64,000 nt of DNA from an uncultured bacterium (lineage in GTDB: Bacteria > Fidelibacterota > Marinisomatia > Marinisomatales > UBA1611), in assembly GCA_943788175.1 (NCBI GenBank), contig CALSPG010000001.1, positions 240,873-304,872 on the forward strand, read 5' to 3'. Position 1 is the first letter of the stretch, and each line of letters opens with the position of its first letter. Position numbers and translations under genes: made by a program. Below, in pieces: positions 603 to 63,839 of this stretch. The notes beneath the pieces were generated by a model. That model was not told the DNA's origin and searched no databases. It was given only the letters and a program-made list of their open reading frames with translations.

Positions 603-1994
603 ATGTTAATTCGCCTATTTTTCGGAATCTCATTATTTCTTTTATCTAGTTGCTCAAATATTAGTAACGAATCAGAATTAGAATTAAAAAGAGGTCTTTT
701 CTATAATACTTCCAATGGAAAGCCTTTCTCCGGTAAAGTATATAAATTATATAATAATGGTTCTAAAATGCGAGAGGCGCAATTTGATATAGGTGCTATT
801 GAAGGTTCATACACTTATTATGATAACGAAGGCTCGATAATTTATCCAGCAGACGAGGCTTCATTAGATTTTAGAGATGGGAAAAAATATTTTGCAAATT
901 CTGATAAAGAATTCTGGGGTTTAGCCTTTGGAACTTATCAAAGCGGAGAAACTTCTTTCGAAGTGCTTTATGAAAATGGCAAGGTAGTTGGAGATTATGT
1001 TTACTTTAACCGAGACGGTTCTATCAAGTCCCCTATCTTTACGTCATTATTGATTCGTCGCGGAGATGTCTTATATCAAGAAAGTTCACCAGAACCTTAC
1101 ACGGGTCCTGTATTTGATCTGTGGGAAAATGGAAATAAAATGTTGGAGGGCTCCTACAAAAATTCTGTTAAGGACGGTAGGTGGATGGAGTGGTTTGATA
1201 ATGGTCAGCCAGAGAAGACAGTACAACTATCGTTACGGACTTCGTCATGGCTATTGGGCTGAATGGCACAGCAACGGCTTGCTCTCTATTGAAGGTAGCT
1301 ATACGTTGACGGTAAAGAGGATGGCACCTGGACATATCTGGTACCCTTCCGGCCAAAAAGAAAAGATAATCATGCAAAAAGAAGGTTGGTGGAATGGAAG
1401 GATCTCAAAAATGGTTCTTAAATGGCCAAATGATGGAAGATATAAGCTATAAAGACCAAATGCCTGTAGGCAAATGGCAATATTGGTTTGAAAATGGTCA
1501 ACTAAAAGGAAGAAAGAAACTATGAGAATGGTTTGCCCTCCGGAAGCTGGACTCAGTATTATAACAATGGATTTATGAAACATAAAATCAACTACTTGTA
1601 CTAGGCAAGGAAGATGGTACGTGGGTCTATTGGTATAACAACGGCCAAAAAAAGGAAGAAAAAAACTTTATCAATGGAAAAAAAGAAGGTAAGTGGCAAA
1701 GTTGGTTTGCCAATGGCGCCAAAAAAGAAGTGAGATACTTTTGCTGGTAATTTAAAAAGTGGAGTGTGGAGAGAATGGTATGACCTCCAGCCCAGAGAAG
1801 AAAGACGATATGTGAACGGTAAATTAGATGGGCCTAGAAAAAAATGGTATTCCAATGGTAAGTTAAAAGAAGAGGGTAATTATAAAGAGGGTAAAGAGAA
1901 CGGAAGATGGACCTACTATCTTGAAGATGGCGCTATTGAAACATCCTATGATATTAAAGGTAACTTTTTATCGCGAATTAATGTTGATGACTAA
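603..1994 (+). pseudogene. MORN/YwqK-type repeat lipoprotein, disrupted by multiple frame changes
   Basis: It has a lipoprotein signal (MLIRLFFGISLFLLSSC). The repeat unit G-x-W-x-x-W-[YF]-x-N-G-x appears in all three + frames in turn: KDGRWMEWFDNGQ (frame of 603), RHGYWAEWHSNG (frame of 1066), EDGTWVYWYNNGQKKEE and KEGKWQSWFANGAKKE (about 1610-1730), and PRKKWYSNGKLKEEG and ENGRWTYY (frame of 1764). Confidence 0.75.
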
Positions 1995-2145
1995 AAAAAC
2001 TAAAAATAGTTCGGATTGCCACTTATAAAAAATGTACTTAAGTTAAAAAGCATCTGTTTTAAACAATTACATAGAATAATCATGAAAAAAATCTTTTATT
2101 TACTCAATATTATTATCCTTCGCCTCTGCTCAACAAGGGCTCAAC

Positions 2146-3222
2146 TTGGAAGAGCTTGAATCAGATGATAACGGGACCCTAATGTATCCTTACTCTGGGA
2201 AAGTATTTGAATACTGGCCTAATGGGGATTTAAAGGTTAGAGGTAGACTTAGAAATGGTTTAAGAAATGGTAAATGGGAATATTATCACACAAATGGATC
2301 AAAGATGGCTGCTGGTAAGTATTTCGATGGCAATGGTTCTAAAATCGATCCTGAAACTAAGATTCCCATGCAGGGTTTTGTAGGTAATTGGACGTTCTAC
2401 TATAAAACAGGGCAGCAATGGCAAGAAGGCAGCTGGAAAGACGGTATACCATCAGGAGAACATGTAAAATGGTATCCTAATGGAAATACTAAAACTATTC
2501 TAACATATGAGAGCGGAGAGCTTCAGGGGCCTATAACTAAATGGTTTGAAGATGGTCAAGTAAAAGAAGAGGCGTTTTACAACTTTGGTAAGCTAGATAG
2601 TTCTTACTCAACCTGGTATTCAAATGGCAGCAAAAAAGAAGAGGGTGATTACTTTCGAGGCATTCAAAATGGACATTGGACATTTTGGCACGAAAATGGA
2701 GAGCTAAAGCGAGATGGTAGTTATTCAAATGGTGAAATGGATGGTATCTGGGTGGAATATGCAGCTGATGGAAATAGTATCCAGCGAAGTAGGTACAATG
2801 AGGGGTTGTTTCTATATGACTTGCATTGGGGGCCGAAAGAGCTTTACACAAGGTCACAAAAGCTTAGAAAAAAGAATATAGAGTCTTCAATTTTAGTTTT
2901 AGACAACATTGTCAATTCATTCAAAGAAAGTAAGTATGCCACTCGATCTCAATTTTTAAAAGCCGAAATTTATATGAATGATTTAAAAGATTTTAATGCT
3001 GCAATTAGGGAATATAAAGCAGTAGTTAAATTGTTTCCCACCTCTGCGCAGGCCCAAGACTCACAATATATGGTTTCTTATATCTATGGTAGTGTATTAG
3101 ATAATAAAAAGCAGGCTAAAAAAGAATACAAATCTTTCCTTAAAAAGTATCCTAGTAGTAGGCTTGTATCCGCAGTGAGATTAGAATTGAAACAGCTTAA
3201 TAGTAGGATGGCTAGAAAATAG
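2146..3222 (+). CDS. MORN/YwqK-repeat protein with a C-terminal TPR-like (YbgF-type) domain; the signal peptide sits in another frame upstream
   Basis: Repeats include NGKWEYYHTNGSK, GEHVKWYPNGN, QNGHWTFWHENGE and MDGIWVEY. The C-terminus (AEIYMNDLKDFNAAIREYKAVVKLFPTSAQAQDSQYMVSYIY) is TPR-like. ATG at 2082 encodes MKKIFYLLNIIIL in a different frame, and it joins the ...SFASAQQGLNLEELE frame after a 1-nt shift near 2112-2120. Confidence 0.75.
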   Translation: MEELESDDNGTLMYPYSGKVFEYWPNGDLKVRGRLRNGLRNGKWEYYHTNGSKMAAGKYFDGNGSKIDPETKIPMQGFVGNWTFYYKTGQQWQEGSWKDGIPSGEHVKWYPNGNTKTILTYESGELQGPITKWFEDGQVKEEAFYNFGKLDSSYSTWYSNGSKKEEGDYFRGIQNGHWTFWHENGELKRDGSYSNGEMDGIWVEYAADGNSIQRSRYNEGLFLYDLHWGPKELYTRSQKLRKKNIESSILVLDNIVNSFKESKYATRSQFLKAEIYMNDLKDFNAAIREYKAVVKLFPTSAQAQDSQYMVSYIYGSVLDNKKQAKKEYKSFLKKYPSSRLVSAVRLELKQLNSRMARK

Positions 3223-4629: not shown

Positions 4630-4959
4630 ATGAAAAAACGACAAAACATTGTGTTCTCTACGGATGAAAATTTTTTTCATGATAAAAATGAATCTATAGA
4701 ACCTATTAATGTGGCTGCAAATGAACAAAATCTGAAAATCAGTTTAAAAAGGCTACCTGGTAATAGGATATTAACGATTATTAATGGTTTAAAAGGAGAC
4801 GCCTTAAGCTTTAATGCTTTATCAAAAGATCTTAAAAAGGCTTGTGGTGTCGGCGGATCGGTAAAAAATAGACAAATCTTAATCCAAGGAAATCATAGGG
4901 AAAAAATAATAAAAATTTTAGATGAAAGAGGCTTTAAAGTAAAGGCCAGTGGAGGTTAA
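4630..4959 (+). CDS. yciH: translation initiation factor SUI1/YciH family
   Basis: 109 aa. The C-terminal KKACGVGGSVKNRQILIQGNHREKIIKILDERGFKVKASGG matches the YciH/eIF1 pattern (KKxCGCGGxVK...IQGD...G..VK..GG). Confidence 0.85.
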   Translation: MKKRQNIVFSTDENFFHDKNESIEPINVAANEQNLKISLKRLPGNRILTIINGLKGDALSFNALSKDLKKACGVGGSVKNRQILIQGNHREKIIKILDERGFKVKASGG

Positions 4960-4968
4960 ATTTATAAC

Positions 4969-6141
4969 ATGAAATTTTTTAATTTAATTACATTTATAGT
5001 TTTAAGTGTCATGTCATTTTCTTCGTGCGATAAATCGTTAAAACTATCAAAAATAAAAATGGTGCTAACTGGGAGTGTTCATGGCCAGTTAGATCCTTGT
5101 GGCTGAAAGAAAAATCCTCTAGGCGGTCTGTCTAGAAAATTAATGGTATTAAAAGATATGCGTAAGAATGGTGAAAGCCCTCTAGTTCTTGATGCCGGCG
5201 ATATGTTCTTTAGTAAAACTAGCATTAACATTAATAATATTAAATCAGAGCAGCATAGGTGCGAAACTATGTTAAAAGGCTACGAGAAAATTGGCATTGA
5301 CGCTCAAAATGTTGGTAAGTATGAACTTTTAGCTGGGTTATTATATCTGAAAAAAATGGAGAAAAAGTTCAGTAATATTCCATTTATTTCTGCAAATATA
5401 AAAAGTGCTGCGACAGGCGAGTTATTATTTAAGCCATACCGTGTCGTAAGTAAAGATGGTCTTAACATAGGTGTTTTGGGTTTAACTAATATGGTTCCTG
5501 ATACGATGCGCTCTGTTGTCATGGATGACTACATAAATACAGGAATTAAATACATTAAAGAATTGAAAAATAAAGTTGACCTTATTGTTTTGCTTGTTAA
5601 TGCAGATAGAACTTCCCAGGCTTCTTTATCAAAACATTTTAGCGATGCGGATTTTATTTTTACAAGCGGTAGTACTCATAGAACTAGCTCATCAATGACT
5701 CAAAATAAGAATGGTCCTTTTTTATATTCTAATGGAAAACAAGGTAAATACCTATCGATAATTGATCTTGAGATTAAAAATGTCAAGGGACCCATTGCTG
5801 ATCTTTCAGCTCCAGAACAAAAAGTAAAACAACTTAATAATAGGCTGAAAAGATTGCAGAAAAAAGATCCAAATAGTTCTCTTGAAAAAATTTATGCTGG
5901 TAAAGATAATATCTTAAACCTAATCAAACGCTATAAAAACGACCTTAAAACAGCAGAAACTGCTATTGAAAATGCTTCAAATAAAATGAGATACACTAGT
6001 TTCGCGTTAAATAGAAAAATAAAAGATGACCCTGAAATGTTAACAATGGTTAATCTTGCTGTCGAAAAATGTAAATCGTTAGAATTGAATAATAATAGTT
6101 TTGAAAAAAGTAATTCTCACGGGCACAACCATAGCCATTAA
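4969..6141 (+). CDS. calcineurin-like/5'-nucleotidase-type lipoprotein with an in-frame TGA (codon 46); candidate selenoprotein
   Basis: ATG 4969 is in the same frame as track ORF 5143..6141. The sequence reads MKFFNLITFIVLSVMSFSSC (lipobox) ...VLTGSVHGQLDPCG-TGA(5104-5106)-KKNPLGGLSRKLMVLKDM... and this TGA is the only stop. Downstream motifs are LVLDAGDMFF and NVGKYE (a degenerate GNHE), and the tail is His-rich (SNSHGHNHSH). Confidence 0.65.
5118..5136 (+). promoter_or_regulatory. putative bacterial SECIS hairpin downstream of UGA 5104
   Basis: UCUAGGC-GGUCU-GUCUAGA forms a 7-bp stem (one G-U pair) with the loop GGUCU. Counting U of the UGA as 1, G22 G23 U24 C25 U26 G27 match the bases at the same positions of the E. 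coli fdhF SECIS as I recall it. Confidence 0.5.
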
Positions 6142-6185
6142 TTTTTTTAAAAGGTTTAATATTATCAAATTTTAATTTTGAATTA

Positions 6186-6671
6186 ATGAACTATTCTAAC
6201 TCGATCCACCAAGTAGGTATCTTCATATTTATATCTTTAATTTTTAGTATTTCTACTAATTTTTTCCGATCTGATTCTATTGATTATATCTCAAAAGGAT
6301 TTGATAAAGTTGAATCTTTAGATGATTTAAATTTAAATAGTGAAGAGGGTATTAAAGAGGTTAGTTTAAAAATTGCTCAGGATTTGTTCAAAAAGGAGAC
6401 ACTTTTTATTGATGCTAGAGCTAAAGAATATTACCTTGAGGGACATATCCCTGGTGCAATTTGTTTTGATGATTTTGATTCTCTTTCAAATGAAATTGAT
6501 AATAGGATCCAAAATAATGAATTTTTTGTAGTTTACTGTAGTGACGATGACTGTGGTTCAAGCGAAGAACTTTCATATCAGTTGCTTGACGAGGGCTTTA
6601 CAAGTATTTATTTATTTCGAGGCGGTTGGAAGCTGTGGATAGATAATAAAATGCCTATTGAAAAACCATGA
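6186..6671 (+). CDS. rhodanese-domain protein, membrane-anchored
   Basis: It has an N-terminal hydrophobic helix. Rhodanese signatures are EYYLEGHIPGAI, the active-site loop VVYCSDDDCGSSEE and LFRGGWKLW. Its stop overlaps the next start (ATGA at 6668-6671). Confidence 0.85.
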   Translation: MNYSNSIHQVGIFIFISLIFSISTNFFRSDSIDYISKGFDKVESLDDLNLNSEEGIKEVSLKIAQDLFKKETLFIDARAKEYYLEGHIPGAICFDDFDSLSNEIDNRIQNNEFFVVYCSDDDCGSSEELSYQLLDEGFTSIYLFRGGWKLWIDNKMPIEKP

Positions 6672-7119
6672 ATTACTTAAAAAGTTATTCTATATTAATA
6701 TTAAGAATTATTGTTGGCTCGGTTTTCTTATGGGCTAGTCTAAGCAAGATCATAGATCCTTCAAAGTTTGCTAGAGAAATTTCAAATTATCATGTTATGC
6801 CATTTGGTTTGGAGAATACGTTGCTATCTTTTTACCATGGTTAGAGTTTTTTATTGGCTCTGCACTCATTCTTGGAATTATGGTTGATGGTTCGGTAATC
6901 ATATGTGCATCTTTATTAATTATGTTTAATTTGCTTGTAGCTCAAGCAATGGTTCGAGGTTTTAACATAGAGTGTGGATGTGGCTTAAAAGAGGGTGAGC
7001 TAGTTGGTTTTCAAAAGCTATTTGAAAACTTTACCTTTCTAGGATTCTGTGTTTTGATTTATTTTAGAAAAAATAAATTTTTGGAAATATTTCCAAAAAC
7101 AGAATTGTCTGATAAATAA
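6668..7119 (+). pseudogene. MauE/DoxX-family membrane protein with one frame change near 6822-6830
   Basis: ATG 6668 gives MNYLKSYSILILRIIVGSVFLWASLSKIIDPSKFAREISNYHVMPFGLENT and then a stop. The sequence continues in another frame as AIFLPWLEFFIGSALILGIMVDGSVIICASLLIMFNLLVAQAMVRGFNIECGCG (track ORF 6880..7119). Confidence 0.7.
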
Positions 7120-7141
7120 CATAGATGTAAATTTATATCAT

Positions 7142-7214
7142 GCGAGAGTAGCTCAGCTGGTAGAGCATCACCTTGCCAACGTGGATGTCGCGAGTTCGAA
7201 TCTCGTCTCTCGCT
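7142..7214 (+). tRNA. tRNA-Gly (anticodon GCC)
   Basis: Hand-folded cloverleaf: acceptor stem GCGAGAG/CTCTCGC, D arm GCTC-AGCTGGTA-GAGC, anticodon arm TCACC-TTGCCAA-CGTGG (one 31:39 mismatch), T arm GCGAG-TTCGAAT-CTCGT. It closely resembles E. coli tRNA-Gly(GCC). CCA is not encoded. Confidence 0.9.
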
Positions 7215-7220
7215 CGCGAT

Positions 7221-49927: not shown

Positions 49928-51274
49928 TCATTTTAGATATATCATTTTGTTTGATAAGAGTGTTTTATCTACGATTAATTGATAAAAATAAACGCCCGAG
50001 CTTATTTCTTGGTCAAATTGATTTTTGGCGTTCCAATTCATTTCATAATAACCACTATGTTTAAAATCACTAATTATATTTTTAATCAAATTTCCTCTTA
50101 AATCATATATGGATAAGTCTACATTTGAATCGCGATGTAATAGAAAAACAAAATTTGTATACCCGTTAAATGGATTAGGATAATTATTCATTTCAAGTTT
50201 ATAACTTTCAGGTAAATTAATATCAATACCCAGGTAATTGGTTTTTAAAGAATTAATTAATCTTTGTTTACCATCTATAATATCATAACTAAGAGCCCAT
50301 ATCATTAAGCCGCCAATTTGATTATCTTTCACATAATCACTTTTTCGCGCAATAGAAGTAGAATCTTCTATGGTAATGATTTGGTCTTGTGTCGAATTTC
50401 GTAAATATGGTGATTGAGCTGTATTATCCCAATTATAATCCCAGCCGTTATTAATATAATGCTCATATTGATTATACAGTAGTGATGATACTTCACCTTG
50501 AAAAGACTGATTTATGTCTAAAGCATTGTATTGTTTGCCATAGAAAGCCAAACCGATATTAATCTTACTTCGAGGAATACCTCGGGTATTTGAAAGGTAA
50601 TTAAAACCAGTGCTTACTGCTCCATCGGGATCGTTCACGGGAGAAGGATATAATGGTGCATTGTGACCTGCGTGATCGGTCCAAGACCCATGGAAATCAT
50701 ATGTCATTGCATTAAAATAACTAACATTTTGGATCAATGAATTAAAATCATAATGCTGCCCAGACCAATTGGAAACAGGTACAGCCATAGATATTAACCA
50801 CTCAGGATATAGTTCATTAAATGCTTGTCTTAATTCAGCGATAAAATGACTTAAATTATTTTTTTGAGTGACACCGGTTGGATGCTCCCAATCAATGTCA
50901 ATTCCATCATAATTGTTATTTTCGCAAATACTAATGATATTATCAATAAAAATAGAACGCGCTTCTTCGGATTCGACTGATGGTGCAAATCCCCATGAAT
51001 TTCCCCAACCGCCTAAACTCAGTAAAATTTTTGCACCATGGTCATGTACAACGCTAGTAATTGATTGAGAAATCATATCATCATAGTGTAAAATATTACC
51101 CTCTTCATCAGGCCATGCGAAAGCATGATTTACATGTGTAATTACACTATAGTCTATTTCTGAAGGATGAAGATTTCCTTGAACCCATTGTGGATAATAA
51201 CCAACAACCCGTTGTGAAAAAGAAATATCAAAAACACAGGTACATAATATTATAGTAGCTAGTAATAATTTCAT
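49928..51274 (-). CDS. GH18 chitinase with a T9SS C-terminal sorting domain
   Basis: It has a signal peptide, the catalytic DGIDIDWEHP (DxxDxDxE) and the C-terminal NNYPNPFNGYTNFVF...VYFYQL...MIYLK. Confidence 0.9.
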   Translation of the reverse strand: MKLLLATIILCTCVFDISFSQRVVGYYPQWVQGNLHPSEIDYSVITHVNHAFAWPDEEGNILHYDDMISQSITSVVHDHGAKILLSLGGWGNSWGFAPSVESEEARSIFIDNIISICENNNYDGIDIDWEHPTGVTQKNNLSHFIAELRQAFNELYPEWLISMAVPVSNWSGQHYDFNSLIQNVSYFNAMTYDFHGSWTDHAGHNAPLYPSPVNDPDGAVSTGFNYLSNTRGIPRSKINIGLAFYGKQYNALDINQSFQGEVSSLLYNQYEHYINNGWDYNWDNTAQSPYLRNSTQDQIITIEDSTSIARKSDYVKDNQIGGLMIWALSYDIIDGKQRLINSLKTNYLGIDINLPESYKLEMNNYPNPFNGYTNFVFLLHRDSNVDLSIYDLRGNLIKNIISDFKHSGYYEMNWNAKNQFDQEISSGVYFYQLIVDKTLLSNKMIYLK

Positions 51275-51369
51275 TCTTAATTGAAGATTAGCGAATTTAA
51301 TATTAGATAGCTAATCTAGTTATCAAAAAAAGTAATAAATAATTAAGGAATATCTTTAAAAAGCTAAAA

Positions 51370-54300
51370 CTACTTTAGTAGTATCATTTTTTTTGAACTA
51401 TTAAACTCTTTTGTTTGTAGGGATAAAATATATACACCTGCGGGTAAAATTGAACCTAAATTATTTTCTCCGCGCCACATAATTTCTTTATATCCTGGTG
51501 ATTGAACAGAATTAACTAAAGACTTTACATTTTCACCTTTAAGGTTATATATATTTGCATTTACAATTGTTCTTATTGGTAATTCATACTGAATCTTTGT
51601 TATAGGGTTAAATGGGTTTGGATAATTCTGCTTTAACAAGAATAAATGTGGAACAGGATCGATTTCGGTATCTAGCTCTCCATTAAAACAGCTTCCAACT
51701 TCATATGTATGTGGTTCCGCGGATGTGTTCCTCTCTAAACCATTATACGAATATGTGTAATAAAACTGTATCATCTCACCTTCATTTGCATTTATTTGAA
51801 ATGGAATATTAGGGCTTACATTGTATCCTGGCGGTGTTCCCCCTGTGCTATAATAAAGAATACAAGTTGGGTTTCCCACATGCCCTTGACTTGGTATAAA
51901 AGTAAGCGTTGGGTTATTTATATCGTCAGAAAATTCATATGTATAGTCGCCATTGCCTGGACCGCCTATGCATGATGGCGCCTCAATTATTTCAATTTCA
52001 AATGAGTTTGATTCAGAAGATAAGCCATCATCGTCTGTTGCAATAACCTTGATAGTATGATACCCCAATGAAATGTTTTCCCAAAGGTATTCAAATGGTT
52101 CTTCAATTATTTCGGTAATAATTATGTCATTATCATAAAATTGAATTAATTCAATCTCTCCATCAATATCAGTCGCACTAGCAATAAGCTCTATAGAAGT
52201 TCCCTGATAATATGTCTCACTTAAATTGGATGTATTTAAGGAAACAGAAGGTGATAGGTATTCAGAATCAGAAACAAAAATATTTACGTAATCTTCTGAT
52301 GAGTGAGAATTATCATCTACAATAAGTTTAAATTTGTATGTTCCCTCTATTAATCCTGTGATATTTGTTTCTACAGTTAGTGGTGTTACTATACTTACAG
52401 TATTAGGGCCAAATATTTGAACCCATTGAAAATTTAAATTATCTGTATCAATATCTGAACTTAAGCTACCATTAAGAGTTGCAGTTGAATTTGGTAAAAT
52501 TACTAGTACATCCTCCCCTGCGTTTGATAATGGTGGGTTATAATCTAAATTTCTATTAAACGTAAAATTTAACCTACCTAGATTAAATCCACCCTGTATA
52601 AAAACAATCCTTAGAACATGTTTTCCTGTATTTAGTTCAATGTTTTGAGAATTTCCCGTTTGCCAGTTATACCAATCCCCTGTATTAGCAGCATATATAT
52701 TATCACTAACTATTTCTCCATTTATCTCAAAATGAAAAGGGCCACCTCCACCCGCAATATCTGAAGCATATCTATAGTCTAAGTCATAGTAGCCAGCGGC
52801 AAGAACATTTATCGAGTATTCAACCCATTCACCTGGCTCAATCCAGCCCAGAGTTGGTCCTTCGATATTTCCAGAGTATTCGACATCAACGTATTCATCA
52901 GTCCTATAGTCTCCTTCATTGTTAAGTGAATTATCAAAATATGAAATATTTTGGCCTAAGCCTCCTTCAAAAGCATCATATTTACCCGGTTCAATAATAC
53001 CCGGGATATTGTTTTCAGAATTGTTATAGGCTAACTGTTCCCCAACAACAATTGTAATAAAATTGGTTAATCCAAATTCAGAACCAGAAAACATTTTACC
53101 GTAAATATTATGAGTTCCCAAAGACAGATTTTGGGCTGTGAACTCAAATGGTTGTGATGTTACCTCACCAATTAGATCTCCGTTATCATAAAACTCTAAT
53201 CTTGTAATATTTTGATTTTGGGATTCAAAGCTAATTAAAGCACTACCATTTATGTATGACTGAACAAAATCTGTTTGTATTGAACCTGCTATAGCTTCTC
53301 CTCTATTTGTGCCCATGTCTTTTGGATTCACGGTTAATTGATATCCATCAGAAAAAGATACTAATAACGGTTCTTCCGTATAATTATGAGCGGCGTATGT
53401 AATCTGTCCATTCTTATTAAAACTAGCAGCAATTGGCCAGTTAGCTGTGATTTCAGACCTATATTGTCCTAATGCATTCATACTATGTAGCCAGTAATAT
53501 GTCTGAGCATCTGAGATTCCAAACTTTAAAATTCTATCTGGATTCGAATTGTAAAGTTCAATTGCAGCAGGAGCATCAATATATGAAAGGTATTTCCAAA
53601 ACACATCATGCCATAAATTTGGATTTATCTCATTGTTTAAAATCCCTGTATTGCTAGTGATCTCTGTCCATAGATTAGTAGTATATTCTAAATTATGAGA
53701 TAAATAAAAAGACCCACCATGAATTGGATACATTTCAATACCGTAGGAAGCTGCTATATCATTAGTCCAGAATGTCCCGTTGTCATATGAATTCCCCCAG
53801 ACCCTTGAGACTAAGCTATATTGTTGATTATCACCAAAGTTTCTATTGTACATATCAAACCAGTACTCATCAATAGCTGTTCTTTCTGTGGTATATAAAT
53901 AAATACCTAGGTCTCTGATCTCATCATTACCTGTAACGCTTCCCCAGTGTATTAATGAGGAATTAAACTGCATGCTTTCAGAGGTAGATTCTTGGTCATT
54001 TCCTTGAGGGAAAGTAGCAAATCCATTTGCCCAGCAGTGGCCTGCAAAAGGGCTAAAACTTCTTAAAAATGGGTAATTAGGGTCATCTCTATTAGATGAT
54101 GCAGCATCTCTCACTAAATGATTTACCATCTCACCCCATTCATCTGCCCAACCGGGATCAAATTGTTCGATAAATGATGCAGCATGAATAAAATAACCCC
54201 AATGAAAATGATGATCGTTAATATTGTTATCTTGACCATGCCCTGAAGGGTAACCAATTAATGTGGACCAAGTAGAATTATAGTAGAAAATAAAAGCAAC

Positions 54301-55518
54301 TTCAGATGAAGAAGCTGTTAACCAATCTTCTAACCTATTTTTGACTGTCACAATCATCTGATCTCTTGCTTCTGTATTACCTAATTCATGAGCTATTCTA
54401 GCGGTCTGAACTAAGCGGTTCATTACTTGGCCTTCGTTGTAAGAGTCGGTCCATGTTGCAAGTTGATTATTCTCAATTTGTGAAATTTTATTTTGTAAAT
54501 CCGCTGGATTATAACTCTCGCTATAATGGGGCAAATCTGGTAAAGTTGGAAGAATCCCGGAAAATAAATTTTTTGTACTGAAATTATTTCCATTTAACAT
54601 TTTTAGTTCACCCCTTACGCTATTATATGAATATTCATATGGATAGGGTGACTCATCAGATAAATTATTCCATTGGTGAGGAAGTAAACCTTGTAAAATA
54701 TTTTCGTATGAGCCTTCTTTAATATCTACTTCTACTAAAAAGTCAGTATAAACGACTGAGTTGTTATTATCATATGACCATTCAACAGAGGTATTTTGAG
54801 GAAAAACGTAGGCATATTTCTGTAGATCCGCGACAACTGAATTAAGGTTGCTGTAGTCTTGTGGCAGCATAGCAAGTGACCAATAATTTTGACCATTTAA
54901 GCTGGAGGTATACTTATTACCAGATTGTTGCCAAGAACTCCCGGTAGGAGCATAAATAACAAAATCTGCTCCATTTCTGGCATCCTCTATTATCATTTTT
55001 TCACTTAAAACAGTGACTTGACCTAAGTTTACTTCTATTTCAACTTCTGAATTTGTGTCTTTATTAAAATAAATAAAAGGCATGCCTACGCCAGAAGTGG
55101 CTTGGAGGGAATTATTTTCATCTGTCCAGTCTAACGTTACAGTCCAATCAGAAAAATCATATACTTTTGCTTTAGATGAGCTCAATCCAGATAGACCAAT
55201 AATTATTGGTTCTTGATCATCGTATACCCCCCATGGTAAATAACTCACAACTAAACCTTTATTTACTGTTTTAAGAGCCATCGGATAGTTAAAGAGATTA
55301 CTTACATGGTCATTTTTTATAACCGAGGACCACCAATCATTAGTTGGTATATGCTTGTTTGAAGCTGGTCCAATTGTTTGTGGTTGTCCTGATGGATAGC
55401 TATTTCTTCCGGCCTCATCAGTACCAGGAAAACTAGTCGTGTAGCTACCAGAACCGACTTGAACAACTTGTGAAAAAACAAAGTTTATTAAAAATAATAT
55501 TATAGTGTATTTAATCAT
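51370..55518 (-). CDS. GH81 endo-beta-1,3-glucanase with CBM-like and Ig/PKD-like modules and a T9SS C-terminal sorting domain
   Basis: GH81 signatures are NDHHFHWGYFIHAAS and DQESTSESMQF. CBM6-like segments follow (GWIEPGEWVEYSINV, YRYAS), then repeated Ig-like modules. The C-terminus reads QNYPNPFNPITKIQYELP...VYILSL...MILLK. Confidence 0.88.
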   Translation of the reverse strand: MIKYTIILFLINFVFSQVVQVGSGSYTTSFPGTDEAGRNSYPSGQPQTIGPASNKHIPTNDWWSSVIKNDHVSNLFNYPMALKTVNKGLVVSYLPWGVYDDQEPIIIGLSGLSSSKAKVYDFSDWTVTLDWTDENNSLQATSGVGMPFIYFNKDTNSEVEIEVNLGQVTVLSEKMIIEDARNGADFVIYAPTGSSWQQSGNKYTSSLNGQNYWSLAMLPQDYSNLNSVVADLQKYAYVFPQNTSVEWSYDNNNSVVYTDFLVEVDIKEGSYENILQGLLPHQWNNLSDESPYPYEYSYNSVRGELKMLNGNNFSTKNLFSGILPTLPDLPHYSESYNPADLQNKISQIENNQLATWTDSYNEGQVMNRLVQTARIAHELGNTEARDQMIVTVKNRLEDWLTASSSEVAFIFYYNSTWSTLIGYPSGHGQDNNINDHHFHWGYFIHAASFIEQFDPGWADEWGEMVNHLVRDAASSNRDDPNYPFLRSFSPFAGHCWANGFATFPQGNDQESTSESMQFNSSLIHWGSVTGNDEIRDLGIYLYTTERTAIDEYWFDMYNRNFGDNQQYSLVSRVWGNSYDNGTFWTNDIAASYGIEMYPIHGGSFYLSHNLEYTTNLWTEITSNTGILNNEINPNLWHDVFWKYLSYIDAPAAIELYNSNPDRILKFGISDAQTYYWLHSMNALGQYRSEITANWPIAASFNKNGQITYAAHNYTEEPLLVSFSDGYQLTVNPKDMGTNRGEAIAGSIQTDFVQSYINGSALISFESQNQNITRLEFYDNGDLIGEVTSQPFEFTAQNLSLGTHNIYGKMFSGSEFGLTNFITIVVGEQLAYNNSENNIPGIIEPGKYDAFEGGLGQNISYFDNSLNNEGDYRTDEYVDVEYSGNIEGPTLGWIEPGEWVEYSINVLAAGYYDLDYRYASDIAGGGGPFHFEINGEIVSDNIYAANTGDWYNWQTGNSQNIELNTGKHVLRIVFIQGGFNLGRLNFTFNRNLDYNPPLSNAGEDVLVILPNSTATLNGSLSSDIDTDNLNFQWVQIFGPNTVSIVTPLTVETNITGLIEGTYKFKLIVDDNSHSSEDYVNIFVSDSEYLSPSVSLNTSNLSETYYQGTSIELIASATDIDGEIELIQFYDNDIIITEIIEEPFEYLWENISLGYHTIKVIATDDDGLSSESNSFEIEIIEAPSCIGGPGNGDYTYEFSDDINNPTLTFIPSQGHVGNPTCILYYSTGGTPPGYNVSPNIPFQINANEGEMIQFYYTYSYNGLERNTSAEPHTYEVGSCFNGELDTEIDPVPHLFLLKQNYPNPFNPITKIQYELPIRTIVNANIYNLKGENVKSLVNSVQSPGYKEIMWRGENNLGSILPAGVYILSLQTKEFNSSKKMILLK

Positions 55519-55720: not shown

Positions 55721-57330
55721 ATGATTACTACATCTAATATTTCCATGCAATTCGGTTCGAAGCCATTATTTGAAAGTATATCCGTCGCTTTCTCTGATAA
55801 AAATAGATATGGCCTCATTGGTGCAAACGGTTCTGGAAAATCAACCTTTATGAAAATACTTACGGGTGAATTAGAACCTACCTCTGGAACCGTATCGATT
55901 GATAAAAATAAACGAGTTTCAAAACTGAGTCAAGATCAGTTTGCATATGAAGATATAAAAGTATCTGATTGTGTTATTATGGGGGCACGATTTGCTCTGG
56001 AAAATCAAAAATGAGAGAGAAAAAACTTTATAGTCTGCCTGAAATGACTGATGAGCAAGGAATGAAAGTCGCTGAATTAGAAGTTGAATTTGGGAGAGAT
56101 GGATGGATATACGGCTGAAGCGAATGCTGAGGAACTGCTCCTGGGACTTGGAATTCCAATCGAAGACCACGACAAGCCAATGAGTTCTATTGCTCCAGGT
56201 TTGAAATTACGAGTACTCTTAGCGCAAGCTCTATTTGGCGGACCCAGGCATACTACTATTGGATGAGCCGACAAACAATCTTGATATAAATACTATTCGA
56301 TGGCTTGAAAACACGTGTAAAAAAACAAAGATTGTGTTGATGATTGTCATCTCTCATGATAGGCGATTTTTAAATAGTGTATGCACAAATATGGCAGATT
56401 TAGATTACGGCGAAATAAGGGTTATTACAACGGAAACTATGATGACTTTATGATTGCAGCAACCATGGCCAGAGAAACACTTATGAACGAGAACGCAAAA
56501 AAACAAGCAAAGATAAAAGAATTACAATCATTTGTTAGTCGTTTTTCTGCAAATGCATCTAAAGCCTAAGCAAGCTACATCAAGGGCAAACCAAATAAAT
56601 AAGATAAAATTAGAAGATATATAATTCTTCTAGCAGGGTTTACCCATTTATTAGATTTAAGCAAGAACAAAAAAGTTGCATAACAAGGTGGTTGACATCG
56701 AAAACATTTCTAAGTCTTATGATGATTTAAATGTTATTAAAAAATTTAATATGACTATTAATACTGGCGATAGAATCGCTATTGTTGGTGAAAATGGAAT
56801 CGGTAAAACAACTTTACTTAAATGTATCATTGAAAGCAGTTTTTCTGATAACGGTATTATTAAATGGTCTGAAAATGCATCTATTGGCTATTTTGCGCAA
56901 AATCACAGCGATGAATTCAAAGGCGATATAAGTTTGATTGATTGGATGGCTAAATGGAGTCATAAAGATGATGATCTAGAAACTATAAGAGGCACATTAG
57001 GTCGATTATTGTTCAATCAAGATGATATTAATAAACCAATTAGTGTATTATCTGGCGGAGAACAACGTCGAATGCTAATTGGAAAAATCATCCTACAAAG
57101 GGCAAATGTCATTATATTAGATGAACCGGACTAATCACTTAGATATGGAATCAATAGAAGCCCTAAATCATGCTCTAAGTATATTTGAAGGAACAATTAT
57201 TTTTGTTTAGCCATGATAGAGAGTTTATCTCTTCTCTTTCAACTAGACTATTAGAAGTTCGAGAAGAAAAGATAGTAGAGCACAGTGGGGGGTTATGAAA
57301 GTTATAGGGACAGTATTAATGGAAGCTTAG
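55721..57330 (+). pseudogene. ybiT: ABC-F ATPase (YbiT-like), heavily disrupted
   Basis: Homologous pieces occur in changing frames: GANGSGKST (55721..), [22 protein letters not shown] and [15 protein letters not shown] (56084..), [11 protein letters not shown] and ISHDRRFLN (56235..), [15 protein letters not shown] (56381..), GENGIGKTT and LSGGEQRRM..ILDEP (56676..), and HLDMESIEALN and SHDREFISS beyond 57134. There are also in-frame stops near 56567-56690. Confidence 0.85.
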
Positions 57331-57552: not shown

Positions 57553-59126
57553 TTAGATATTTGAGCAAGCCTAAAGTTAAAACTGTCACTTAAAGCTTGC
57601 CTACTAGCATCAATAATATTTTTCGAAACACCAATTGTTGACCACGACTCATCTCCATATGTGCTTTCAATCAAAACTCTAACCTTTGCGCCAGTGCCTT
57701 CTTGTTCATTTAATACGCGAACTTTATAGTCAGTTAGTCTAACATCTTTTTAAGTGCGGAAAAAAAATCGAGACAAGGCCTTGCGAAGAGCATTATTCAA
57801 AGCATCAACAGGACCATCTCCATCAGAAGCTGTGTGCTCAATATCTCCATCTACCAAGACCTTTAAAGTAGCATCAGATTTTGCGCTATCATTTTCACCA
57901 TGCGAAATATGTACGTTTGAATCTATAACAGTAAAAAAAGGACTATATTCACCAGACAGCTCTCGAATAATAAGCTCTAGAGATGCATCAGCTGCTTCAA
58001 ATTGATAGCCTTTAAACTCTAACTCTTTTACTTTAGAAATCAGTTTACCAGTAATTTCTTTGGAGTTTTTAAAGTTTATATTTAATTCATTTGCTTTAAA
58101 GCTGATATTACTTTTTCCAGAAAGGTCAGAAACAAGAACTCTTTGCTTATTTCCAACTATGTCTGGTTTTATATGTTCATACATAGAGCTATTTTTCATA
58201 ACTGCGCTAACGTGTATTCCACCTTTGTGGCGCGAATGCAGATTTGCCTATGAATGGAGCTTGAGTGTTAGGAGGCATATTCATAATATCATAGGTAAAA
58301 CTCACCAAACTGGCAAGGTTCGGTAACTTTAAGTCAGTCTTTGTAGTTACATTCATTTTTAATACTAAATTTGGTATTACTGTTGCTAAGCTAACATTTC
58401 CGCATCTTTCTCCTACGCCATTTATAGTTCCTTGAACATGTAATGCTCCTCCTGTATACTGCCGTTAGCGTATTTGCGGCAGCTAAGCCACTATCATTAT
58501 GTGAATGAATACCAATTGGCAAAGAATACCGTTCAACAACTTTTCTTGGTGACATCATAAATATTATTTGGGAGAGAGCCACCATTAGTATCACACAATA
58601 CTAGTGTATCTGCACCGCCATTTACGGCCGCATCTAACATTTCTAATGCAAATGATTCAGATTGTTGATATCCATCAAAAAAATGCTCTGCATCAAAGAG
58701 GACCCGCACTCCGTTTTTTGAAAGAAAAGCAACAGAACGCTCAATAAGTTTTGCATTATCTAGATCAGATATTCCTAGTCCATGTTTAGAATGTAGTTGC
58801 CATGTTTTACCAAATATCGTAATCACTCCAACCTCAGCTTCTAACAATGATAATAAGTTGTGGTCTCCCTCAACATTACTTAGCTTTCTAGCTGTAGAAC
58901 CGAAAGCACATATTTCTGATTGTTTTAGGTTTATGGACTTAATTTTTTTGAAGAAACTTTTATCTCTGGGATTGCTTCCAGGCCAGCCGCCTTCTATAAT
59001 GTTAATACCAAAATCATCTAATCGCTTAGCTAGTCTAATTTTATCCTCAACCGATAAATTAACGCCTTCACCTTGCGTTCCGTCCCTTAAGGTTGTGTCA
59101 AATAATTCTATTGCTTTATTTTTCAT
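57553..59126 (-). pseudogene. cimA: citramalate synthase-like (CimA/LeuA family) gene, disrupted by several frame changes; the 3' limit is approximate
   Basis: The N-terminus is intact (FDTTLRDGTQGEG, 58533..59126). PIGIHSHNDSGLAAANTL follows in another frame (58391..58594). FIGKSAFAHKGGIHVSA-type sequence around 58200-58330 is in yet another frame. The C-terminal regulatory domain (GDGPVDALNNALRKAL, 57750..58199) and LTDYKVRVLNEQEGTGAKVRVLIES come after a further shift. Confidence 0.8.
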
Positions 59127-59139
59127 TTTCTAAACCTAT

Positions 59140-59778
59140 CTAATTAAATAACCACGGAAATTTATTTTTATAATTATCTTCAAAGTTCTTTATAATGTCA
59201 ATATTCTCTAAGGTTTGGCCAATTTCATCTAGCCCTTTTATAAGGGATTCTTTTTGATAAGGATTTATTTCAAATTTAATTTCATTATAAAAATTATCAT
59301 TGACGACTTGATTGGTTAAATCAATTGTCAATTCATAGTTTTCTTTTTCTAGGCAATCATTAAAAAGAGTATTTATGTCTTTTTCACCTAGCTCTATTGG
59401 AAGAATGCCATTTTTAAAACAATTATTATAAAAAATATCAGCAAAGCTTTTAGCTATGATGGCTTTTATTCCAAAATCTTTAATAGCCCAGGCAGCATGT
59501 TCGCGGCTAGAACCACATCCGAAATTTTCTCCAGTCAATAACACAGAAGCTCTATTATGGGGCTTTTTATTTAATATAAAATTTTTATTTATACGTCTTA
59601 TAGAATGATCTTGACCGGGTTCACCCATATCTAAATATCTCCACTCATCAAATAGATTCACTCCAAATCCTTCTCTAGATATAGATTTAAGATATTGTTT
59701 CGGTATAATAGCATCTGTATCAATATTGTTTTTATCAAGTGGAGCTACAATTCCTTTGAATTTTCTGTACTTTTCCAT
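59140..59778 (-). CDS. leuD: 3-isopropylmalate dehydratase small subunit
   Basis: GENFGCGSSREHAAWA. Its start overlaps the leuC stop. Confidence 0.95.
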   Translation of the reverse strand: MEKYRKFKGIVAPLDKNNIDTDAIIPKQYLKSISREGFGVNLFDEWRYLDMGEPGQDHSIRRINKNFILNKKPHNRASVLLTGENFGCGSSREHAAWAIKDFGIKAIIAKSFADIFYNNCFKNGILPIELGEKDINTLFNDCLEKENYELTIDLTNQVVNDNFYNEIKFEINPYQKESLIKGLDEIGQTLENIDIIKNFEDNYKNKFPWLFN

Positions 59779-61160
59779 TATATGCTTTCAATATCTGTGA
59801 AATGACCAGCCACAGCAGCAGCTGCAGCCATAGCAGGACTTACAAGATGAGTACGCCCACCCTGCCCTTGTCTTCCTTCAAAATTTCGGTTGGAGGTCGA
59901 TGCACACCTTTCACCTGGATTCAGTCTATCTGCATTCATTGCGAGGCACATAGAACAGCCCGGATCTCTCCATTCAAATCCAGCTTCAAGAAATATTTTA
60001 TCCAATCCTTCTTCTTCTGCTTGTCTTTTTATTGGACCTGAGCCTGGAACTACCATTGCAAGTTTTATAGAGGTGCTAATTTTTTTATTTTTTACAACTT
60101 CTGCCGCTGATCTTAAATCTTCTATTCTACTGTTTGTACAAGATCCAATGAAAATTTTATCAAGCTTAATATTTCTGATTTTTGTTCCAGGAGCCAAGTC
60201 CATGTACTTAAGAGCTGAGGAATAAGATTTTTCTGCTCCAAGAGGAATTTCTCCATTTATATTCGTTACCATCTCTGGGGATGTTCCCCAGGTCACCATA
60301 GAACTAACATCTTCTCCATTAATATCTATAATTTTGTCAAATGATGCGTTGCTATCAGAGTTAAGTGTCTTCCAGTACTTAACTGCTTCTTCAAATTTAT
60401 TTTTTGATGGAGCATAATTTTTATTTTGTAAATAATGAATAGTTTTATCGTCTACTCCAATAAGACCTGCCCTAGCCCCAGCCTCAATAGTCATATTGCA
60501 TACTGTCATTCTTCCCTCCATAGAAAGCGACCTAATAACAGAACCGCCAAATTCAATAGAATATCCAGTTCCTCCTGCAGTGCCAATCTTACCTATTATA
60601 AATAAAATTAAATCTTTAGCTGTAATCCCATTTGATAGTTGACCATTAATATTAATTAGCATAGTCTTAGATCTTTTTTGAATTAAACACTGAGTCGCCA
60701 ATACATGCTCTACTTCAGAAGTACCGATTCCAAATGCTAATGTACCAAATGCACCATGTGTTGAGGTGTGTGAATCACCACAAACAATAGTCATTCCAGG
60801 TAATGTCAAACCTTGCTCTGGACCAATAATATGGACAATACCTTGACTAGGATCATTCATACTGAATTTTTTTACATTAAAGTTTTCGCAGTTTTCTTCA
60901 AGAGTCTCAACTTGAATTTTTGAAACGGGGTCAGTTATTCCTTTATGCCTGTTCTTTGTTGGGATATTATGATCAGGTACAGCAAAATTTGAATTGGTCC
61001 TCCAAAGCCTCCTCTTTGCAATCCTCAATCCTTCAAAAGCTTGTGGAGATGTGACTTCATGAATATAATGTCTATCTATATAAAGTAAGTCAAAACCGTT
61101 TTTATTAGATTTAACACAATGGGAATCCCAAATTTTATCGTACAGTGTTTTTGGTGTCAT
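59778..61160 (-). CDS. leuC: 3-isopropylmalate dehydratase large subunit
   Basis: Aconitase-family motifs VCGDSHT, GSCTNSR and NRNFEGRQG. Confidence 0.95.
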
Positions 61161-61163
61161 GTT

Positions 61164-62747
61164 CTACACGTTCACAGATTCTTCAATAAATAAAAGATAT
61201 CTACTGTTTTTATCATTTTCATATTGGTTTAATGCGTCTAAATAAGCTTTAACACTTGCTTTGATTGTATCGGTTGATGTTCCCTTTGATATATATAAAG
61301 AGTCATTAATAAACAGTCTTATTATCACTTCTCCGAATGCATCCTTTCCGCTGGTTATCGATCTAACCTTGTAATCATGAAGCTTAATATCATAATCAAG
61401 CTTTAAAGCTCTCTTGATAGCTTTAAAACAGGCTGCTACAGGCCCATCACCTGTTGCAGATTCTTGTTCAATACTATCTGGTGTCTTTATGCGTACAGTA
61501 GCGGTGGGTATAGTATTAGTGCCATTATTAACATGAAGGTAGTCCAGTTCGTATGAGTTATTTTTATTCACATTTCTATCGCCCATCAATATTCTAAGGT
61601 CATCATCGAATATTTCTTTTTTCTTATCCGCTAATTCTAAAAACTTAGAATAAACTTTATTCATCTCTTTATTAGTAAGCTCGTATCCTAATTCAGATAA
61701 CCTAGATTGGATACCATGCCTACCAGAATGACGACCAAGTATAATTTTACTTTTATTTAGACCTACAGACTCAGGAGTCATTATTTCATAAGTTTCTCTG
61801 TTTTTTAAAAATCCATCTTGATGTATACCTGATTCATGAGCAAAAGCATTGTCACCAACAATGGCTTTATTTGCTTGAACAATCATACCAGTATGTTTAG
61901 AAACCATTTTACTGGTATTATAAATTTCTTTTGTGACTATATCTGTATCAAAGTCCCAATAATCATTTCTAACATTCAGACTCATGACTATTTCCTCGAG
62001 AGAGGCATTACCAGCGCGTTCACCTATGCCATTTATGGTACACTCAACCTGTCGCGCCCCTGATGATATCGCAGACAGAGAGTTTGCTACTGCCAACCCT
62101 AGATCATTATGACAATGAACACTAATAATTGCCTTTCGAATATTTCTAACCTTCTTCTTTATTAATAATATTTTTTCACCAAATTCTAAAGGCATAGTGT
62201 ATCCAGTCGTATCAGGTACATTAATTACTGTCGCGCCAGCATCAATGACAGCCTCTATAATCTCGCACAAATAATTAATATCTGTTCTACCAGCGTCTTC
62301 AGGAGAAAACTCAACATCATCTGTTAATGTTTTAGCATAGGTGACTGCATCAGCTGCCATTTTAATAACTGTTTCTCTTTTCTCGTTAAGATTTATACCG
62401 TATTTCGTATCTGAAAACTTTCCCATGATATGAATATCAGAAGTGCCCGCAAATGTATGAATACGATAATTATTTGCATTCTTTAAGGCCTCATACGCTT
62501 TCTTTACATCTTTCGGAATTGACCTCGCTAGAGCGGCTATTATGGGACCATCTGTACTGCCTGATATTCTTTCTACAGCCTCAAACTGAGCTTTTGAAGA
62601 AACAGGAAAACCAGCTTCAATTACATCAACATTTAATTTTGATAGTTGTTTTGCTATCTCGACTTTTTCTTCAATTTCAAGAGAAGAGCCAGGTGCTTGT
62701 TCTCCATCTCTAAGGGTAGTATCAAAAATAACTATTTTATCGCTCAT
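61164..62747 (-). CDS. leuA: 2-isopropylmalate synthase
   Basis: FDTTLRDGEQ, HCHNDLGLAVANSL and the C-terminal LeuA-dimer domain (GDGPVAACFKAI). Confidence 0.95.
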   Translation of the reverse strand: MSDKIVIFDTTLRDGEQAPGSSLEIEEKVEIAKQLSKLNVDVIEAGFPVSSKAQFEAVERISGSTDGPIIAALARSIPKDVKKAYEALKNANNYRIHTFAGTSDIHIMGKFSDTKYGINLNEKRETVIKMAADAVTYAKTLTDDVEFSPEDAGRTDINYLCEIIEAVIDAGATVINVPDTTGYTMPLEFGEKILLIKKKVRNIRKAIISVHCHNDLGLAVANSLSAISSGARQVECTINGIGERAGNASLEEIVMSLNVRNDYWDFDTDIVTKEIYNTSKMVSKHTGMIVQANKAIVGDNAFAHESGIHQDGFLKNRETYEIMTPESVGLNKSKIILGRHSGRHGIQSRLSELGYELTNKEMNKVYSKFLELADKKKEIFDDDLRILMGDRNVNKNNSYELDYLHVNNGTNTIPTATVRIKTPDSIEQESATGDGPVAACFKAIKRALKLDYDIKLHDYKVRSITSGKDAFGEVIIRLFINDSLYISKGTSTDTIKASVKAYLDALNQYENDKNSRYLLFIEESVNV

Positions 62748-62756
62748 TATGGTTCT

Positions 62757-63839
62757 CTAATCTTTGTTAGTTAAAAGTTTTCTATAGTTTTCTATTACCA
62801 GTTCTGTGAATTCAACAGTCGATAAATTTTTATTTTTATCGTTTACAATATCAGGAGTTCCATATCCTGCATCTAATGAATCACTAACCGCTTGATGAAG
62901 ATTCGATTCTATAGTTTTTTCATTAAATGAAATACCCATCATCATTGCAATAGACAGAATAGACGCTATAGGGTTCGCAATATTTTTACCCGCTAGGTCC
63001 GGAGCAGAACCATGAACTGGTTCATACATAGAAAAATTATCACCAATACTTGCAGATGGTAGCATTCCTAAGCTTCCTGTAATCATAGCAGAGATATCAC
63101 TCAAAATATCACCAAATAAATTTTGAGTGACAATTACATCAAACTGCTTAGGGTTATGAATAATCTGCATTGCAGCATTATCCACATACATATCAGATAA
63201 CATTACGTCTGGATAATTTTTATGAACATCATGTATAATATTTTGCCAAAATTGAGAGCTCTCTAATACATTTGATTTATGAACTGAGACTAAGTTTTTT
63301 GAACGACTTTGAGCCAGCTTGAATGATACATGGGCGATTCGTTCAACTTCTTTTTTTGTATATTCTAATGTATTCCAGCCTCTATCCGCTTCTAAACCCC
63401 TAGGACTACCAAAATATATTCCGCCCGTTAATTCTCTTACAATCATAATATTCGTACCTTCAATTATATTAGGCTTTAAGCTAGATGAATGAACTAAAGC
63501 TTTAAAAATATTTGCCGGTCTTAAGTTCGAGAACAGAGAAAGTGATTTTCTTAATTTTAAGAGTGCTTGTTCAGGTTTCTTATCATGCTCTACATTGTCC
63601 CACTTGGGACCACCTACAGCACCCAAAAAAACAGAATCAGAAGACAGGCAAGCTTCTAGAGTGTCGTTCGTGAGAGGTGTATCATATAAATCAATAGATT
63701 TACCCCCAATTTCCTTTTCTATAATAGTAAATTCTAATTCACTGTGCCTTGAGACTTCTTTTAATACTTCTACAGCGGAAGTAGTTATTTCAGGTCCTAT
63801 TCCGTCACCAGGAAGCGTTATTATGTTATAATTTTTCAT
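62757..63839 (-). CDS. leuB: 3-isopropylmalate dehydrogenase
   Basis: ITLPGDGIGPE, VRELTGGIYFG and NLFGDILSD. Confidence 0.95.
   Translation of the reverse strand: MKNYNIITLPGDGIGPEITTSAVEVLKEVSRHSELEFTIIEKEIGGKSIDLYDTPLTNDTLEACLSSDSVFLGAVGGPKWDNVEHDKKPEQALLKLRKSLSLFSNLRPANIFKALVHSSSLKPNIIEGTNIMIVRELTGGIYFGSPRGLEADRGWNTLEYTKKEVERIAHVSFKLAQSRSKNLVSVHKSNVLESSQFWQNIIHDVHKNYPDVMLSDMYVDNAAMQIIHNPKQFDVIVTQNLFGDILSDISAMITGSLGMLPSASIGDNFSMYEPVHGSAPDLAGKNIANPIASILSIAMMMGISFNEKTIESNLHQAVSDSLDAGYGTPDIVNDKNKNLSTVEFTELVIENYRKLLTNKD

Follow-up and report, generated by a model that had tools for sequence, protein, structure and literature searches.

A conserved SECIS-type hairpin behind the in-frame UGA of a UshA-like selenoprotein gene in Marinimicrobia

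The gene, its in-frame TGA and its neighbours

The window, by which we mean the whole stretch of 64,000 nucleotides that was analysed, carries on its + strand a complete selenoprotein gene for a putative UshA-like lipoprotein (4969..6141; 390 codons followed by TAA), which contains a single in-frame TGA at 5104..5106. We read this codon as selenocysteine, residue U46 of the product, and the same codon recurs in all the related genes that were compared (67/67). A table-11 listing of open reading frames divides the gene into two pieces, 4969-5106 and 5143-6141, and the translation around the point of division reads ...GSVHGQLDPCG*KKNPLGGLSRK.... Cys44, encoded by TGT at 5098..5100 on the + strand, is the partner of the selenocysteine in a CxU motif and is invariant both in a protein alignment and in 67/67 loci. 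At the beginning of the gene a signal peptide (4969..5028, + strand) can be read from the translation, with a lipobox-like end, ...SFSSC, in which Cys20 is encoded at 5026-5028. A Cys follows the hydrophobic N-terminus in all full-length homologues, and the combination of the hydrophobic segment with this conserved Cys (SFSSC) suggests that the product is lipidated, that is, a lipoprotein.

The downstream neighbour, at 6186..6671 on the + strand, encodes a rhodanese domain (Pfam PF00581, E 6.7e-15), and a rhodanese gene adjoins the UshA-like gene in 45 loci. It is followed at 6668..7119, again on the + strand, by a gene for a MauE-family membrane protein, whose halves are matched by Pfam PF07291 in different frames; the gene is broken in the window by a deletion of 1 nt near 6820 and is a single ORF in five of the related loci (L001-L004 and L010). 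The order SUI1 - UshA-like gene - rhodanese - MauE-family membrane protein - tRNA-Gly is found in about 45 loci. The window also holds a fragmented LeuA/CimA-like gene and a fragmented ABC ATPase.

The hairpin and its conservation

From the TGA onwards the window (5104-5136) reads TGA AAG AAA AAT CCT CTA GGC GGT CTG TCT AGA. RNAfold, run on 5100-5150 and on 5104-5145, folds this segment into a hairpin at 5118..5136 on the + strand (-8.2 kcal/mol), with the 7-bp stem UCUAGGC/GUCUAGA, one G-U pair included, closing the 5-nt apical loop GGUCU (5125-5129, + strand). This is exactly the fold that had been drawn in an earlier, sequence-only reading of this DNA, and its remark that the hairpin has no bulged U agrees with both the MFE and the consensus fold. 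The loop lies inside the block GGCGGUCUG (5122..5130, + strand; positions 19-27 from the U of the UGA), the nucleotides of which are near-invariant among the related genes. Stability against shuffled controls, which the same reading had put forward as a check, gave a divided answer: a stretch of 42 nt stood out from dinucleotide shuffles (z -2.5; 4/200 shuffles equally good), and a stretch of 51 nt did not (z only -0.9; 41/200 equally good). Since the fold is marginal and dependent on the stretch chosen when it is set against shuffles, the window sequence alone is no proof of structure, and the significance of the hairpin is one that rests on comparison with other genomes and not on single-sequence stability. 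An Rfam scan of 4900-5300, with E up to 10, yielded no SECIS family or other meaningful match, its four matches being at chance level (E at least 3.8) and none of them lying over the hairpin on the + strand.

Roughly 260 relatives came out of a protein search. The full-length ones had all been called with 'W' at the TGA codon, i.e. under code 4, and the remaining ones with a start downstream of the TGA. A scan of loci, with one genome per GTDB species, then provided 66 loci comprising orthologues and paralogues, whose proteins share 35-67% identity with the query; those loci that are taxonomically labelled come nearly all from MAGs or single-cell genomes of Marinimicrobia / Neomarinimicrobiota / Fidelibacterota. 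TGA stands directly after ...PCG in the 66 loci and in the window alike (67/67).

The nucleotides of the apex are conserved beyond what the amino acids ask for. Every one of the 65 ungapped sequences has the loop GGUCU, and the third positions of GGC GGU CUG are identical in 65/65, 65/65 and 64/65 sequences, respectively, so that GGCGGUCUG amounts to nine near-invariant bases, namely the loop and its closing pairs, in which three synonymous third positions are included. Upstream of the TGA, the synonymous third positions of the invariant residues H-G-Q-L-D-P-C-G vary freely; that of the Gly codon immediately before the TGA is A in 18 sequences, C in 24, T in 17 and G in 6. The pattern shows a constraint at the RNA level acting on the GGC GGU CUG block.

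The stem, in turn, changes in a compensated manner. Positions 18 and 30, which flank GGCGGUCUG and are the last bases of a Leu and a Ser codon, respectively, form a pair in 60/60 distinct sequences, with GC in 32, AU in 17, GU in 6, CG in 2, UA in 2 and UG in 1, and with 22 double changes. Neither the covariation score nor the percentage paired of the real alignment was reached by any of 500 column shuffles (0/500), and when the partner is shifted by 1-3 columns pairing falls from 88% to 24-51%. Compensatory change in orthologues that also carry TGA, named in the sequence-only reading as a further check, is thus borne out, with TGA in 67/67 and six types of pair at 18-30. The pair 20-28 is G-U in 56 sequences and G-C in 4, and 57/60 sequences pair U17 with A31. 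The seventh and outermost pair, 15-33, was rejected as a conserved feature: it is unpaired in 39/60 sequences, and the conserved stem is therefore one of 5-6 bp, the pair counts in the 60 sequences delimiting a core at 5119/5120-5134/5135 on the + strand. An RNAalifold consensus keeps the four innermost pairs (18-21 with 27-30). A stem of 4-7 bp around the same 5-nt loop is found in 66/67 genes; in the gene at locus L061 a change of G27 to A opens the closing pair.

Homologues with a cysteine codon at this place offer a second comparison. An exhaustive HMMER search gave 4762 homologues, and in the UGA column of the family-profile alignment, among the matches listed, C (motif CGC) occurs in 36, which are distant homologues, and 'W' (TGA) in 44. 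The DNA of six Cys-codon homologues (L067 and L070-L074) was examined. Five of them, L070-L074, use other Gly and Leu codons and have neither GGCGGTCTG nor an equivalent hairpin; L074 has the identical peptide, PIGGLSRK, written with GGA GGA TTG, so the GGCGGUCUG block is not dictated by the protein. A distant homologue with TGA (L069) keeps a hairpin. A homologue with TGT (L067/L068) also keeps a strong one, with the apex GGUCUU, so that genes with UGA do not have the hairpin entirely to themselves; this hairpin may be a fossil SECIS left behind after a change from Sec to Cys.

Comparison with known SECIS elements and the decoding of the UGA

The element was compared with the bSECIS consensus model (bSECISearch; constraints as in PMC13188914, Fig. 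2). This model has a loop of 3-9 nt on a stem of 4-16 bp, a G at loop position 1 or 2, after which G or U is usual, a distance of 16-37 nt from the UGA to the apical loop, and an MFE of at most -7.5 kcal/mol (PMC13188914). The window element lies within all of these bounds, with a loop of 5 nt (GGUCU), a stem of 7 bp, a spacing of 18 nt and -8.2 kcal/mol, and its placement, just downstream of an in-frame UGA and inside the coding region, is also that of the model. Spacing is 18 nt in 65/67 genes; the orthologues L049 and L052 depart from the model in that their 15 nt fall just under its range. Folded over 45 nt starting at the UGA, 48/67 genes attain -7.5 kcal/mol or lower, and 19/67 are weaker. 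When the window and all the fetched loci were scanned for an in-frame TGA together with a GGU-loop hairpin, the UshA-like genes alone were retrieved.

The E. coli fdhF SECIS had been quoted in the sequence-only reading, and rightly so, since the 31-mer is present without mismatch within fdhF in 5412/5426 complete E. coli genomes, and its statement that positions 22-27, counted with the U of the UGA as 1, are GGUCUG in both fdhF and the window gene is accurate. In the published description of the fdhF element, positions 15-31 form a 17-nt upper stem-loop in which U17 is bulged and G23/U24 lie in the loop; SelB contacts U17 and G23, the bulged U is required by E. coli SelB, and the lower stem is dispensable in E. 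coli (PMC8659212). Both elements follow the UGA directly within the coding region (positions 15-33 in the window, 15-31 in fdhF) and both expose G23/U24 in the apical loop at an equal distance from the UGA. They differ in that the bulged U17 of fdhF has no counterpart in the window element, where U17 pairs with A31; in the loop, which is AGGUCU closed by C20-G27 in fdhF whereas the 5-nt loop of the window is closed by C21-G27; and in the stem, which is AU/GU-rich and weaker in the window. A lower stem (positions 4-14 with 32-41) is absent from the single-sequence and from the consensus folds. The window element is, then, fdhF-like in its position and apex, and is not a strict fdhF-type SECIS.

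We consider it very probable that the hairpin is a functional bacterial SECIS for UGA 5104. According to this proposal, the hairpin would still be folded 11-15 nt downstream when UGA 5104 enters the ribosomal A site; SelB carrying Sec-tRNA(Sec) would then bind the apical loop GGUCU, in which G23/U24 are exposed, and would deliver selenocysteine, the UGA being read as residue 46 and not as a stop. The resulting protein would be exported and lipidated, and its fold would resemble that of 5'-nucleotidase (UshA/SoxB).

The UGA might also be read through without SelB, by a near-cognate Trp- or Cys-tRNA or by a suppressor, the hairpin acting as a generic stimulator and Trp or Cys being placed at 46. 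This is improbable, although several observations would agree with it. The 64 kb of the window and ~400 kb from related loci gave no selA, selB, selD or tRNA-Sec gene, ARAGORN found no tRNA-Sec when run on the window and on 60 loci, and six-frame motif scans together with the translations of all the window ORFs gave no SelB or SelD signature. Furthermore, three SAR406 single-cell genomes, which are partial, have been reported by Peng et al. to contain an 'orphan' SelD with no SelA or SelB detected (PMC5029168), and the hairpin has no bulged U of the kind that E. coli SelB needs. Against this stands the loop, which is invariant at the nucleotide level and matches, position for position, the GGUCU that SelB contacts in fdhF. 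The homologues have Cys there, in a CxC motif, which forms with the UGA the classical Sec/Cys pair; a Cys codon would suffice if Cys were all that was wanted, yet TGA has been kept in 67/67 genes; and curators class the family among selenoproteins. As judged from these comparisons, the absence of sel genes from the stretches searched is outweighed by the phylum-wide TGA and the invariant loop of SelB type.

A second alternative takes the TGA as a true stop, so that a lipopeptide of 45 residues and a separate protein of 332 residues, started at ATG 5143, would be made; we hold this to be very unlikely, and with it the corresponding view of the hairpin as a device for translational coupling or mRNA stability. 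Standard gene callers annotate the gene in this way, and in the databases the majority of homologues appear in truncated form, with about 320-350 residues. Amino-acid conservation, in contrast, peaks right across the TGA (HGQLDPCG-TGA-KKNPLGGLSRK), and no conserved restart codon after the TGA was found among the homologues, the called starts of the truncated proteins varying from one to another. Homologues with Cys run on here without a break, and the first beta-strand of the fold (residues 27-33 in an AlphaFold2 model) lies upstream of the TGA.

A variant genetic code that reads TGA as sense, Trp in code 4 or Gly in code 25, would account for the W that full-length database entries carry at this position, and it could be thought of in a genome that is AT-rich (32% G+C), but we regard it as extremely improbable. 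TGA is the terminator of 8/51 long ORFs in the window, one of these being the ATGA stop/start overlap at 6668-6671, and a scan of the 64 kb for TGA with an open frame on both sides gave 5104 as the only credible case; these two observations exclude a code with TGA as sense. In addition, ORFs of 1648 and 1382 codons stay open under code 11, and a sense codon would need no invariant hairpin downstream. A sequencing or assembly error, or the lesion of a pseudogene, to which the 1-nt deletion in the neighbouring MauE gene and the fragmented LeuA/CimA-like and ABC ATPase genes could lend some colour, is refuted by the same TGA in 66 independent assemblies, with GOS reads from 2008 carrying it as well, and is likewise next to impossible.

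The protein family and its possible function

The protein belongs to a family that has been on record for some time. The family 'COG0737, UshA-like', with the motif CxU, was presented in 2008 as a major selenoprotein family in data from Global Ocean Sampling (GOS), with 76 sequences from 20 samples and 92 Cys homologues (PMC2398784), and as NF041198/COG0737 it is listed in the reviews PMC9312934 and PMC13188914. Among the COG0737_UshA reads given in the GOS supplement are ...SGSMHGQLDPCGUKKNPMGGLSRRYVKI... and RGQLDPCGUKKNPLGGLSRK (PMC2398784), and the window protein shares with members of this group the stretch HGQLDPCGUKKNP[LM]GGLSR (PMC2398784 supplement). The best NCBIfam match of the window protein is NF041198, 'UshA_like_PCGU, UshA-like (seleno)protein' (E 1.6e-60), with a score of 205 bits that is below the curated cutoff of 275. 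The match extends over positions 3-387 of the 519 in the model, and the low score goes together with the absence of the model's C-terminal cytochrome part. Weaker NCBIfam matches are UshA (63 bits) and SoxB (58 bits). With the NF041198/COG0737 family the protein has in common P-C-G-U in an equivalent location following the first beta-strand, a 5'-nucleotidase-like fold, and the existence of Cys (CGC) forms. It differs from the homologues P0231, P0256 and P0188, which carry a C-terminal multihaem cytochrome part, in that the Marinimicrobia protein is without this part and has a His-rich tail (HGHNHSH) at its end.

Pfam gave nothing on the read-through protein, Metallophos included, and on several homologues it left the enzyme domain unmatched, finding only the cytochrome domains of the longer Cys homologues. 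The AlphaFold2 model has a pLDDT of 80.8, falling below 50 for residues 39-48 around CGU, and its top Foldseek match is E. coli UshA (1oie, E 4.6e-17); the matches to 1oie/1ush have E ~1e-16 and a TM of 0.59, and the profile matches UshA chains with E 5e-15. The protein is similar to the SoxB thiosulfohydrolase and the UshA 5'-nucleotidase in overall fold, in exported location and in weak sequence matches. It differs from these dinuclear metallophosphoesterases in the site itself: in the profile alignment the GNHE motif of UshA aligns with GKYE in the window protein, so that the dimetal/catalytic site appears degenerate, and a CxU motif has been added. The GKYE motif, the lack of a Metallophos match and the added CxU make a canonical phosphoesterase unlikely, and the window protein probably is not one.

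Cys44-Gly-Sec46, in the loop after the first beta-strand, most likely constitutes a redox-active selenenylsulfide centre. Our best guess is a redox role for Cys-Gly-Sec, which might extend to sulfur or selenium transfer together with the rhodanese, and it is possible that the rhodanese is the functional partner of the UshA-like selenoprotein. More tentatively, all of this could be taken as one picture, which as a whole we regard as speculative: the CxU selenoprotein, the rhodanese and the MauE protein, whose genes are syntenic across Marinimicrobia, would make up an uncharacterised envelope module for sulfur/selenium transfer or redox chemistry; a scaffold like that of SoxB would have exchanged its dimetal centre for a selenenylsulfide one; and the phylum-wide GGCGGUCUG apex, identical to positions 22-27 of fdhF, would reflect an ancient code of SelB-SECIS recognition, one common to Proteobacteria and the FCB group.

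As the family and its CxU motif have been described since at least 2008, the present finding is a correct rediscovery and leaves current understanding unchanged: the UshA-like selenoprotein family is already known, and the SECIS reading is correct and ordinary. Its practical consequence concerns annotation. The gene is misannotated in essentially all public Marinimicrobia assemblies, either by truncation to the part after the UGA or by a code-4 Trp46, and once the SECIS is recognised the protein regains its signal peptide, its first beta-strand and its Cys-Gly-Sec centre. The finding also means that an abundant uncultured phylum of the ocean (Marinimicrobia, SAR406) spends selenium on an exported enzyme of unassigned function, and that a small, clean SECIS with natural covariation is at hand as material for the recognition of SelB beyond Proteobacteria. 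A second group of paralogues, with TGA, a hairpin and the motif U-PKKPLGGLS, is present elsewhere in some of the same genomes.

Conserved neighbourhood of the selenoprotein gene

The order SUI1, UshA-like selenoprotein, rhodanese, MauE and tRNA-Gly(GCC), which spans 4630-7215 in the window, is kept in about 45 Marinimicrobia genomes (related loci L001-L037, L046-L052, L054-L058 and L065), and this conservation suggests that the products of the three middle genes (selenoprotein, rhodanese and MauE-like membrane protein) are functionally linked. In the window the MauE-family gene (6668-7119), which follows the rhodanese gene, is split over two frames near 6818-6822, where an apparent 1-nt deletion divides it (GAG AAT ACG TTG... 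versus the expected ...AC? GTT GCT). One frame matches positions 2-48 of the Pfam MauE profile and the second frame positions 43-127, and the orthologues in L001-L004 and L010 form one uninterrupted ORF. Either the assembly is in error at the frame break or the gene is a pseudogene.

Paralogue, Cys-codon homologues and database entries

A second selenoprotein paralogue, with the motif PCG-U-PKKPLGGLS or U-KKKPLGGLS, was found in some of the same MAGs, located outside the conserved neighbourhood (L038-L045, L048, L053, L060, L061, L063 and L066). It also carries the TGA and the same GGCGGUCUG apex; in the L061 copy a change of G27 to A opens the closing pair of the hairpin.

The Cys-codon (TGT) homologue of locus L067 retains a strong hairpin with an apical GGUCUU at the SECIS position (3130-3177, likewise in L068), comprising 8 bp with -14.5 kcal/mol over 48 nt, and may preserve a fossil SECIS left after Sec-to-Cys replacement. 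An equivalent hairpin is absent from the other five Cys homologues.

Public protein databases contain full-length entries of the UshA-like family (P0001, P0002, P0010-P0015, P0029 and others) only because all of them derive from short contigs gene-called with genetic code 4, which places Trp at the Sec position; the remaining entries are N-terminally truncated. This misannotation of the family is systematic.

Apparently fragmented stretches and putative polysaccharide-degrading enzymes

On the minus strand, a LeuA/citramalate-synthase-like gene exists only as separate fragments within 57750-59126, one with an HMGL-like N-terminus (58533-59126) and another with HCS_D2 and LeuA_dimer (57750-58199). 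Together with a plus-strand ABC ATPase ORF ending after 152 residues (56676-57134), the region seems to have decayed or to have been badly assembled. It adjoins an intact leuD-leuC-leuA-leuB-like run (59140-63839), whose four genes were assigned by reading translations only. At the other end, MORN-repeat ORFs lie in differing frames (603-1262, 1066-1452, 1734-1991 and 2146-3222) and may represent a single fragmented MORN/TPR lipoprotein gene or two such genes. At 1731 an in-frame TGA separates two open stretches, and a SECIS-like hairpin was not found in this region (603-3222).

Finally, the minus strand of 49928-55518 encodes a GH18 chitinase-like protein with a type IX secretion sorting domain (Por_Secre_tail) and a GH81-like glucanase of 1382 residues with CBM6, PKD and Ig domains, both consistent with a polysaccharide degrader of the FCB group.
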